Assembly: GCF_003019035.1 (NCBI RefSeq)
Contig: NZ_CP027447.1
Length of the DNA: 64,000 nt
Source of the DNA: Escherichia coli
GTDB lineage: Bacteria > Pseudomonadota > Gammaproteobacteria > Enterobacterales > Enterobacteriaceae
Reading direction: 5' to 3' (one strand)
A program made the position numbers. Shown here one piece after another: positions 61,901-64,000 of this stretch; positions within the stretch are counted from its first letter, which is position 1; each line of letters opens with the position of its first letter.

Positions 61901-64000
61901 GCTTCACGCCGCTATCTGCGGCAAAAAGCTGCGAGTTTGTCGGTAATTCACTAAAAATCTGGTCGATATTTTTCAGCGCCTGGGAGATGGCAATCTCATA
62001 AACCTTTTTCCCGGCAAATCGCGCGCGATCATCACCGCTCAGGCCACGCCCGGTAGCGAGAATCACGTAATCGGCAGCGGCAATCTCTTCGCTGGATAAG
62101 CGGTTTTCGATGCCGCTTGATCCTTGAGTTTCAACTTTAATGGTATGACCGAGAGAACGGGCTTTCTGTTCCAGGGCTTCCGCCACCATGTAGGTGTGAG
62201 CGATCCCGGCGGGGCAGTTGGTGATCGCGACAATACGTAAGGATGACTCCATCGCCACGTCCTTATGAGCTGAGGGTTTGATTTAACAAAGCAAGCACCT
62301 GGTCGGCGTCGCCCTGTCGCAGTTGGTCGATAAAATCCTGGTGGATAATTTTGCGGCATAGCGTGCCGATGATTTTGACCTGATCCTCTTCGCCACTTTG
62401 CGGCACACCGAGGCAGATCCAGCAATTGACGTCTTCGCCGTCGCTGGCTTTCCAGTCAATGGCCTGCGCTTTGCGGGCGAATAACACGAACGGTTGTTTA
62501 ACGCAGGCGCTTTTACCGTGCGGCACGGCGATGCCGGAACCAAAACCGGTGGAGTGCATTTTTTCGCGCAGCAGCAGAGTTTGCAGGAACTGGTGTGAGT
62601 CGGTGATAAAACCGTTTTGTAACGCCATTGTCGCCAACTGCTTCAGAACGGAATAAGCGCCATTGCCCTGAATATTCAGGTCAATACAGCTTGCAGTAAG
62701 TGCTGCCATTATTGGACTCCATGAAAAAATATTATAGTTAATTGTAACGGCGGGGCGGTTTTGTGATGAGCGCGGATATGTCGTGAAGTCGTGACAATAT
62801 AAGGCAGAGTGAAGGATAAATTTTGCGGTGTAAGGCACATATTGATGGGAAAAATAAATGCCGTGAATAAAAAATCATTATTTAATGATGTTGTGAATGT
62901 TTAACTGCCGCACATGTTTTGCAGCAAGGTTATTTATATTTGTGGCTTATGAGTCAGCGTGAATTATATCTAATATTTTTTACGATATTTGGTTAAAAAC
63001 GGCACTATTGTTATATTCCTCACGTTCCAGGAAATCAGCGGATTTACTCATATTATGCAGCGGGATACTATCCATCGGCCTGCTGAAGTTGGATTAAAAA
63101 TTCGAAAGTGCACACCTTATATTTCTCTATATACGTATTCCTTTTGGAAAGCGTAGGGTCTCTTTTATTTCAGGGAACGTAAATAATGAAAAAATCGACA
63201 TTATCTTTAGCCATCGGTTTATTATTGGCATGTAGTACCGGAATGGCAAAAACACAGCATTTAACGCTGGAACAACGCATGGCATTGCTGGAAGAACGCC
63301 TGGAAGCGGCAGAAATGCGGGCAGCAAAAGCAGAGAGCCAGGTTAAACAGCTGCAGACACAACAAGCCGCTGAGATCCGAGAAATTAAGGCTGCCCAGGG
63401 CAATACGCCGGTAAATGGACAGGCAACGGCGGAATCTGCAAAGAAAAATTCCACCTCACCTAATCTTTTGCTCTCAGGTTATGGCGATTTAAAAATCTAC
63501 GGCGACGTAGAATTTAATATGGATGCGGAAAGTAATCATGGCCTGCTGGCAATGACCAACGCTGATGTGAATAGCGATCCCACTAATGAACAGTGGAATC
63601 TCAATGGTCGTATTCTGTTAGGTTTTGATGGTATGCGAAAACTGGATAATGGTTATTTCGCCGGGTTCTCCGCACAACCGCTGGGGGATATGCATGGTTC
63701 AGTGAATATTGATGACGCGGTATTCTTCTTTGGGAAAGAGAATGACTGGAAGGTCAAAGTCGGTCGTTTCGAAGCCTATGATATGTTCCCGCTGAATCAG
63801 GATACCTTTGTTGAACATTCCGGTAATACTGCGAACGATCTTTATGACGATGGCAGCGGTTATATCTATATGATGAAAGAGGGCCGCGGGCGCTCTAACG
63901 CTGGCGGTAATTTCCTCGTCAGCAAACAACTTGATAACTGGTATTTTGAATTAAACACGTTACTTGAAGACGGAACATCTTTATATAATGACGGTAATTA

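Follow-up and report, generated by a model that had tools for sequence, protein, structure and literature searches.

Does the reading frame that runs off the right-hand end of a 64,000-nucleotide stretch of Escherichia coli DNA (contig NZ_CP027447.1 of assembly GCF_003019035.1; hereafter the window) encode a sugar porin, and if so, of which kind, with which neighbours and under what control? The question arises at a position where E. coli K-12 lacks the gene and has the rha genes beside frvA, as the original prediction, made from the sequence of the window, had correctly stated. The checks proposed with that prediction (extension of the sequence downstream, a profile search against porin families, examination of the full-length protein for a barrel, and comparison of the frvA junction across E. 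coli) have now been carried out. The product is, with near certainty, an outer-membrane porin of the RafY family, a known kind of protein, and sequence comparison indicates that its gene is a chromosomal, stand-alone paralogue of the gene for the plasmid raffinose porin RafY.

Gene and family membership

Calling of open reading frames (ORFs) and translation reproduced the plus-strand ORF proposed from position 63186, which is still open at 64000, the end of the window, after 271 codons. A megablast search against 5,426 complete E. coli genomes returned a 100% identical record (NZ_CP051751.1, strain SCU-301), which supplies the remainder of the gene, up to a position equivalent to 64580 in the window (L001:14487-15881), together with its neighbours. 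The annotation of SCU-301 lists the product as WP_000749944.1, a 'carbohydrate porin' of 464 amino acids; database names for the protein are generic throughout, and NCBIfam offered no specific family name. On its 3' side the gene is convergent with rhaM across a gap of 40 bp, and rhaD, rhaA, rhaB, rhaS, rhaR, rhaT and sodA follow in K-12 order. Since the interval between frvA and rhaM differs from that of K-12 by this one gene, the suggestion that an accessory carbohydrate-utilisation island begins here does not hold. The gene had also been placed downstream of frvA after about 345 bp of AT-rich DNA; frvA is in fact a minus-strand gene whose transcription leads away from the porin gene, so that the spacer is a divergent promoter region, and its length is 476 bp, the smaller figure fitting the longest minus-strand ORF, which ends at 62838. 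The neighbours are thus frvA and rhaM, and rafR, rafA, rafB and rafD do not adjoin the gene as they would in a raf operon.

The Pfam profile PF16966 (Porin_8, 'Porin-like glycoporin RafY') matches residues 104-464 over its entire length (model positions 1-372 of 372; E=3.7e-154, 513.7 bits), and is matched by every one of the 32 homologues aligned for this study. Pfam returned no LamB (PF02264) domain with the threshold relaxed to E<=10, and neither OprB nor any other porin family, and the OprB carbohydrate porin family was neither a profile match nor the closest structural neighbour. A sequence search of the PDB returned no relative of the porin and no solved structure of the RafY family. With 233 cluster representatives at E<=0.001 in a search of 1.84 billion proteins, the family is a small one. 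Paralogues at ~79% identity occur on about 170 plasmids; on pYDC107_184 the paralogue stands after a LacI-type repressor, an alpha-galactosidase, a major facilitator superfamily (MFS) permease and a hydrolase of glycoside hydrolase family 32 (GH32), in a genuine rafR-A-B-D-Y operon. The E. coli protein shares with RafY of raffinose plasmids (e.g., pRSD2; PF16966; TCDB 1.B.15) the full-length Pfam family, a length of 464 amino acids, 77.6% identity, the order of signal peptide, coiled-coil extension, linker and barrel, a conserved cysteine pair and the C-terminal signal; plasmid RafY is nearer to it than to the other sampled chromosomal orthologues (64-70%). The two differ in that the E. coli gene is chromosomal and alone, without rafR, rafA, rafB or rafD beside it.

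Protein architecture

The AlphaFold2 (AF2) model built with divergent family members added to the alignment (pLDDT 81.3, pTM 0.71) has a helix spanning residues 28-70, a linker that is disordered from 72 to 95, and 16 long strands between residues 101 and 463. The beta-barrel region surmised from the window is therefore present in the full-length protein, beginning at about residue 101 according to the Porin_8 match and the model. An earlier model, built on a shallow alignment, scored poorly (pLDDT 61.7) and was superseded when the divergent members were added. As modelled, the protein would be exported and form a 16-stranded outer-membrane barrel with the signal peptide and C-terminal aromatic signal (...RFKYFF) expected of the family. 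The signal peptide that had been noted is borne out (modelled as a helix at residues 3-15); across the 32 homologues Ala21 is nearly invariant and Cys16 of 'LLAC' is not conserved, which points to probable cleavage by signal peptidase I after Ala21 and speaks against a family-wide lipobox. A lipoprotein reading, suggested by the fit of 'LLAC16' to the lipobox pattern, was dropped as a family feature on the same comparison. Elsewhere in the protein, the pair Cys395/Cys399 is nearly invariant.

The heptad-like coiled coil also stands. Positions a and d are occupied by L28, M32, L35, L39, A42, A46, A49, V53, L56, Q60, E63, I67 and A70; an equal a/d contrast over residues 26-70 was reached in 38 of 5000 shuffles, residues 28-70 form a single helix in both AF2 models, and the motif LEQRxxxLExRLxxxExRxxxAE is invariant across genera. 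The linker that follows is the most variable segment, both in the family and among E. coli alleles. By contrast, the loop of 46 residues between strands 5 and 6 (195-240; GRFEAYDMFPLNQDTF...GYIYMMKEGRGRS) is the family's most conserved stretch, with many invariant columns, and by analogy with the 'L3' position of OmpF-type general porins it is a probable pore-constriction loop. DcaP of Acinetobacter baumannii and the trimeric general porins OmpF, OmpC, OmpU and Omp32 nevertheless differ from the porin, sharing 8-14% identity and no Pfam family, and the loop after strand 5 is longer in the porin and has its own conserved sequence.

The comparison with ScrY made in the original prediction probably survives for the N-terminus and fails for the barrel. 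The periplasmic coiled-coil extension, of Pfam type PF11471 (Sugarporin_N), is probably common to both proteins: the profile matches the E. coli porin weakly (E=0.03-0.06), and the extension is taken as a shared homologous feature because 14 of the 32 homologues match at E<=0.001 and 31 at E<=0.1. The substrate ranges of ScrY and RafY reportedly overlap (Ulmke et al. 1997). If the likeness extended to the channel, the protein would be a substrate-specific porin of the ScrY/LamB type, with 18 strands, a greasy slide and saturable sugar binding. An 18-stranded barrel of that type was not found; 16 strands are predicted, the barrel belongs to another family (RafY) with no match to the LamB hidden Markov model, and structural similarity to ScrY is lower, all of which makes such a porin very unlikely.

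Control region

The gene's upstream region carries a dyad, TGTTATATTCCTCACG (TGTTA-N6-TCACG), that resembles a binding site for the cyclic AMP (cAMP) receptor protein (CRP) and retains 8 of the 10 core bases of TGTGA-N6-TCACA. In a set of 13 porin-bearing sequences (12 fetched loci and the window; nine distinct, from six genera), the dyad occurs once per locus in 13 of 13, on the porin strand and 161-234 bp 5' of the ATG; the 13 matches in the 555 kb searched compare with 0.53 expected by chance, and all lie upstream of the chromosomal porin gene. Its half-sites are invariant across the six genera and its six central bases vary. It was not found in the 194 bp upstream of plasmid rafY, which thus differs from the chromosomal gene in lacking the dyad and its associated promoter, nor in K-12. 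In nine loci, a -35-like TTTAC(A/T) follows at a conserved distance of 17-18 nt, with differing intervening sequence, and a -10-like hexamer follows at 16-18 bp, giving a predicted sigma-70 promoter with equivalent hexamers in each. Transcription would start near 63078, leaving a 5' untranslated region (5' UTR) of ~108 nt, and in the nine loci the dyad is centred 59.5 to 62.5 bp 5' of the start so predicted (-61.5 in E. coli). On these features the promoter is read, tentatively, as class I CRP-dependent. Across the 29-kb locus, half of the CRP-class dyads fall in the 9.6% that is intergenic; apart from the porin's own, these intergenic dyads lie between rhaB and rhaS, rhaT and sodA, sodA and kdgT, and fdhD and an inserted ATPase gene.

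Such elements as are conserved upstream fall within the porin-proximal half of the spacer. A strict search for conserved 12-mers upstream recovered the Shine-Dalgarno block only (TTTTATTTCAGGGAACG), the dyad having emerged from the alignment. The inverted repeat in the predicted 5' UTR has a minimum free energy (MFE) of -10.1 kcal/mol (z=-2.09), and only five of eight chromosomal loci reach z<=-1.8; some compensatory changes occur in four sequences and covariation is weak, so that formation of an RNA hairpin is suggestive only. Rfam gave nothing beyond one chance-level match in the spacer and 5' UTR. An AT-rich, near-perfect palindrome (GCTAATA..TATTAGC) overlaps the predicted -10 in Citrobacter and Pseudocitrobacter (e.g., AGCTAATATTTATTAGCT at L012:5822-5839), ~15-45 bp downstream of the dyad-linked -35 (L004-L009, L012), and is operator-like; in E. 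coli, Kluyvera and Enterobacter it is degenerate. A distal block, TTTTTACGATATTTGGTT, might be likened to OmpR-type sites, but is not claimed as one.

Distribution in E. coli and selection

Comparison of the frvA junction across E. coli showed the porin in about half of the genomes. Of the 5,426, 2,557 contain its coding sequence at >=80% coverage (2,542 with the upstream spacer) and 2,814 the K-12-type empty frvA-rhaM junction, the two states together accounting for ~99%. Carriers include O157:H7 (97% identity), E. coli B/C41(DE3) (97.7%) and the B2 strain ATCC 25922 (93%). The K-12 junction is more than a clean deletion: the ~135 bp adjoining frvA align, at ~76%, and beyond them ~165 bp of unmatched sequence stand in place of 1.78 kb. 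No remnant of the porin gene was found there, and none of the fetched loci contains a match to the distal ~165 bp. The genes on either side are 97% identical to those of K-12. Strain HS30-1 (L011:1788-2577) is an independent loss event, in which an IS1A-associated deletion has taken out yiiG-frvRXBA and left just the final 75 nt of the porin gene. A third structural state is seen in ATCC 25922 (L017:1-900), where frvRXBA and the 5' part of yiiG are gone, the porin gene and 332 bp upstream of it are kept, and the truncated yiiG abuts that upstream region.

The gene appears to be under constraint in the lineages compared. The ORF is intact in all four lineages compared, with no disrupted alleles among those examined, and synonymous exceed non-synonymous codon differences by 32:6 and 25:5. 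Over the 200 bp upstream, O157:H7, E. coli B and the B2 strain barely differ, promoter and 5' UTR being more conserved than the coding sequence. The sole indel, in ATCC 25922, is an in-frame loss of seven residues (R31-E37), exactly one heptad of the coiled coil. At the level of sequence these patterns indicate purifying selection on both the porin and its control region. Unusually deep allelic divergence or diversifying selection was considered and rejected: identities of 93-98% track the divergence of the phylogroups, the flanks themselves are 97% identical, and amino-acid changes are few.

Constraint of this kind bears on whether the gene might be a silent relic, an intact ORF without useful expression (e.g., in AT-rich DNA silenced by H-NS) that is heading for loss. 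The orphan lacks a cognate permease, hydrolase and regulator, its upstream region is AT-rich, it has been lost repeatedly and independently (the K-12-type replacement and the IS1 deletion in HS30-1), and the -10 palindrome kept well in Citrobacter and Pseudocitrobacter is degenerate in E. coli; moreover, in Klebsiella pneumoniae GlyP is normally repressed, and RafY is barely recognised by sera of infected mice (PMC13410258). Nonetheless, the strong synonymous excess, the absence of disrupted alleles, the conservation of promoter and 5' UTR, the indel of exactly one heptad and retention across six genera render a relic unlikely. These arguments are directed against a non-functional gene only; a gene that is silent in the laboratory is compatible with the function favoured below.

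Phages and colicins offer another possible source of a polymorphism. Porins are common phage receptors, and the cost of serving as one could maintain the near 50:50 two-state polymorphism and its diverged spacer haplotypes. The E. coli alleles, however, differ at 5-18 residues, mostly in the periplasmic linker, and none cluster in predicted external loops, the opposite of the usual arms race, and the porin is not known to serve any phage or colicin; of the explanations considered, this one is the least credible.

The locus in other genera

Orthologues 81-85% identical are found at the corresponding position in Kluyvera and three Citrobacter lineages, again convergent with rhaM; there the other side holds a regulator with HTH_3 and cupin domains and azlCD, not frvA; in one Citrobacter, the order is frvRXBA, azlDC, the helix-turn-helix (HTH) regulator, porin and rhaM. 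In Pseudocitrobacter, three sugar genes (encoding a GntR-type regulator, an enzyme IIC (EIIC) and a glycoside hydrolase of family 4 (GH4)) are inserted between porin and rhaM. In Klebsiella sp. B345, orthologues of the plasmid proteins RafR (65%), RafA (70%) and RafB (75%) are encoded on the same strand directly 5' of the porin gene, whose product is 75% identical to that of E. coli and which shares the locus beside rhaM and the upstream dyad. In an Enterobacter genome, the divergent frvA-porin pair of E. coli recurs with a LacI/GH36/LacY trio immediately downstream, and rhaM is not adjacent. GlyP of K. pneumoniae and the raf-linked orthologues of Klebsiella sp. B345 and Enterobacter are chromosomal porins of the same family, but they sit with a LacI-type regulator, permease and hydrolase, which the E. 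coli locus has lost or never had. The adjacency of alpha-galactoside genes to the porin in two genera, in two arrangements, supports a functional link to raffinose-type sugars. Gene order across the Enterobacteriaceae, as judged from these sequences, is that of a porin that is an old resident of the frv/azl-rhaM locus. As a separate observation, some Citrobacter and Kluyvera loci (L005, L007-L009, positions 1-5900) carry, upstream of azlCD, a sigma-54-activator regulator with phosphotransferase system (PTS) regulation domains (PRD), together with a PTS of the mannose family and a GH88 unsaturated glucuronyl hydrolase, which marks the surroundings of the porin as a hotspot for carbohydrate-utilisation modules.

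The changing neighbours also bear on two explanations that derive the porin's function from the genes beside it. According to the first, the porin would be the outer-membrane partner of the divergent frvABXR PTS, admitting the frv substrate and co-regulated with it through the shared spacer, as their divergent adjacency in E. coli and in an Enterobacter genome might suggest. Yet ATCC 25922 keeps the porin and its upstream region without the frv operon, azlCD and the HTH regulator separate frv from the porin in Citrobacter and Pseudocitrobacter (or frv is non-adjacent), K-12-type strains have frv without the porin, frvX is truncated in the source genome, and the porin-proximal half of the spacer holds all of the conserved elements; the partnership seems about as improbable as a ScrY-type channel. 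According to the second, the porin would belong to the rhamnose regulon as a channel for rhamnose or rhamnose-containing oligosaccharides, explaining its place by rhaM in six genera. It does adjoin rhaM, in convergent orientation, in Escherichia, three Citrobacter lineages, Kluyvera and Klebsiella. That orientation, however, means that the two are not co-transcribed; the porin has its own conserved promoter region, three unrelated genes split it from rhaM in Pseudocitrobacter and rhaM is non-adjacent in Enterobacter, and a CRP-type half-site is the only sequence in common with the rhaBAD promoter. Rhamnose catabolism, furthermore, was worked out in K-12, which lacks the porin. Membership in the rhamnose regulon is accordingly a shade less probable still than partnership with frv.

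Proposed function

The analysis establishes to which family the protein belongs, its predicted fold, the order and distribution of the genes, purifying selection and the conservation upstream; trimer formation, channel properties, substrates, transcription start site and CRP control are inferred, as follows. The protein would be exported by the Sec pathway and cleaved at Ala21, and its C-terminal 364 residues would form a 16-stranded outer-membrane barrel of the OmpF class, closed by ...RFKYFF, and the conserved loop that joins strands 5 and 6 would fold inwards into its lumen. At the N-terminus, the helix of 43 residues would project into the periplasm, most likely as a three-stranded coiled coil stabilising the trimer, an arrangement known from ScrY and DcaP. 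If RafY (78% identical) is a guide, the channel may be a wide, weakly selective diffusion pore through which di- to oligosaccharides (raffinose-family alpha-galactosides, maltodextrins) could cross the outer membrane at low external concentration, to be taken up by whatever inner-membrane carriers the strain possesses. Transcription is predicted to begin ~108 nt 5' of the ATG, at a weak sigma-70 promoter that would need an activator at -61.5, most likely cAMP-CRP, so that carbon limitation would be the condition under which the porin is produced. At this locus the gene is found repeatedly with genes of the rafR-rafA-rafB type; in E. coli it is now an orphan, and the K-12-type half of the species no longer has it. 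This picture of a RafY-like, trimeric, wide-channel oligosaccharide porin under CRP seems to us, taken as a whole, reasonably probable.

Several points weigh against it. The search for promoter hexamers covered a limited interval downstream of the dyad, and the spacing of -61.5 is not independent of the conserved 18-nt gap. A generic promoter scan gave a weaker TTAAAA-18-TATATT at 63094-63123 instead, and found promoter-like sites no more often than in shuffles. The left half-site is TGTTA in every genus; its invariant T is a non-consensus base at a position that matters for CRP binding, and the factor could be other than CRP. Searchable literature, by name and by accession, gives no expression, localisation, transport or function of the chromosomal gene. 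The channel properties are carried over from a paralogue in which 22% of residues are different, and because the model is of a monomer, trimerisation is an extrapolation. The two raf-bearing loci are arranged differently, so that either raf genes were lost around the porin or they were recruited twice. Finally, ~52% of E. coli lack the porin with no known consequence, and its contribution may be small or conditional.

A bolder extension, which we regard as speculative and doubtful, would make the protein a 'spare' large-channel porin in about half of E. coli (BL21, O157:H7 and B2 pathogens; not K-12), quiet and catabolite-controlled, that might be switched on by regulatory mutation or starvation in the manner of GlyP. 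It could then restore permeability to nutrients, and possibly to antibiotics, upon loss of OmpF/OmpC, and would thereby help to determine, strain by strain, how well the bacterium competes in the gut and what fitness cost porin-loss resistance carries; the locus could also have been the cradle of the plasmid raf porin.

Published context

In itself the gene is ordinary, a correctly annotated but uncharacterised chromosomal member of a known porin family. The standard set of E. coli outer-membrane channels, drawn from K-12, nevertheless omits this porin of about half of natural isolates and of the production strain BL21, and the only well-studied member of the RafY family is plasmid-borne. A report on O157:H7 mentions a 'rafY homolog annotated as rafY2' with rafRABD absent (PMC4809568), and a pan-genome study recorded 'rafY' in 45 isolates, 23 with rafABD and 22 without (PMC12987596); 'rafY' matches in pan-genome and genome-wide association study (GWAS) work are often the orphan porin and not a raffinose operon. 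GlyP of Klebsiella, a porin of the RafY family under LacI repression, confers a competitive advantage when derepressed, a 2026 preprint describes a chromosomal Klebsiella family member that can compensate for major-porin loss in a community setting, and a Salmonella homologue is induced by lactulose. If the E. coli porin behaves like that of Klebsiella, it would bear on oligosaccharide scavenging in the gut and on strain differences in antibiotic permeability.

Features of the porin locus and other observations

Table 1. Coordinates in the window of the porin gene, its predicted protein segments, its putative control elements and the adjoining gene
Feature	Coordinates	Strand	Basis or remark
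Porin gene, 5' 58% (codons 1-271 of 464)	63186..64000	+	ORF and translation; rest from the identical record
Signal peptide, residues 1-21, MKKSTLSLAIGLLLACSTGMA	63186..63248	+	KK n-region, hydrophobic core; predicted signal-peptidase I cleavage between GMA and KTQ
Periplasmic N-terminal coiled-coil helix, residues 28-70, ScrY-type 'Sugarporin_N'	63267..63395	+	AF2, heptads, PF11471
Low-complexity variable linker, residues 71-100	63396..63485	+	pLDDT <50 at 72-95
First part of predicted 16-stranded beta-barrel, residues 101-271 of 101-464	63486..64000	+	AF2 model
Long loop, residues 195-240, between strands 5 and 6	63768..63905	+	Between strands E188-194 and E241-249 in the model
CRP-like dyad TGTTATATTCCTCACG	63009..63024	+	8/10 core bases of TGTGA-N6-TCACA
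Predicted sigma-70 promoter	63043..63071	+	-35 TTTACT 63043-63048, 17-bp spacer, -10 TACTAT 63066-63071; hexamers equivalent in nine loci
Inverted repeat ACGTATTCC-TTTT-GGAAAGCGT in predicted 5' UTR	63133..63154	+	MFE -10.1 kcal/mol, z=-2.09
Shine-Dalgarno AGGGAA inside block TTTTATTTCAGGGAACG	63172..63177	+	8 nt before ATG; conserved in 8/8 other loci including plasmid rafY
Divergent intergenic region frvA/porin, 476 bp, AT-rich	62710..63185	.	GC 0.31-0.38 versus 0.50-0.57 in flanks
frvA (PTS enzyme IIA, EIIA), divergent neighbour outside the porin unit	62263..62709	-	Annotation of the identical record; porin persists without frv (ATCC 25922)

Beyond the porin gene, frvX (M42 peptidase-like; 59741-60811, minus strand) has a premature stop at codon 327 of 356 (59831-59833) and is flagged as a pseudogene by RefSeq in the identical genome; the frv operon is thus damaged in the source strain while the adjoining porin gene is intact. 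The rhaD-rhaA intergenic region spans ~450 bp in K-12 (L002:8274-8723) versus ~82 bp in the source strain (L001:17071-17152), and the extra K-12 sequence possibly consists of repetitive extragenic palindromic (REP)-type repeats. Between fdhD and yiiG (window 52550-56693; L001:3851-7994), the source strain has two extra genes that K-12 lacks. The first encodes a GHKL/HSP90-like ATPase of 611 amino acids (HATPase_c_3 3.2e-09, HSP90 1.1e-07, and a weak PADLOC match to TmtA at 5.7e-06), and the second a protein of 768 amino acids with only faint matches of the tetratricopeptide repeat (TPR) kind; together they could be a two-gene defence or stress module.

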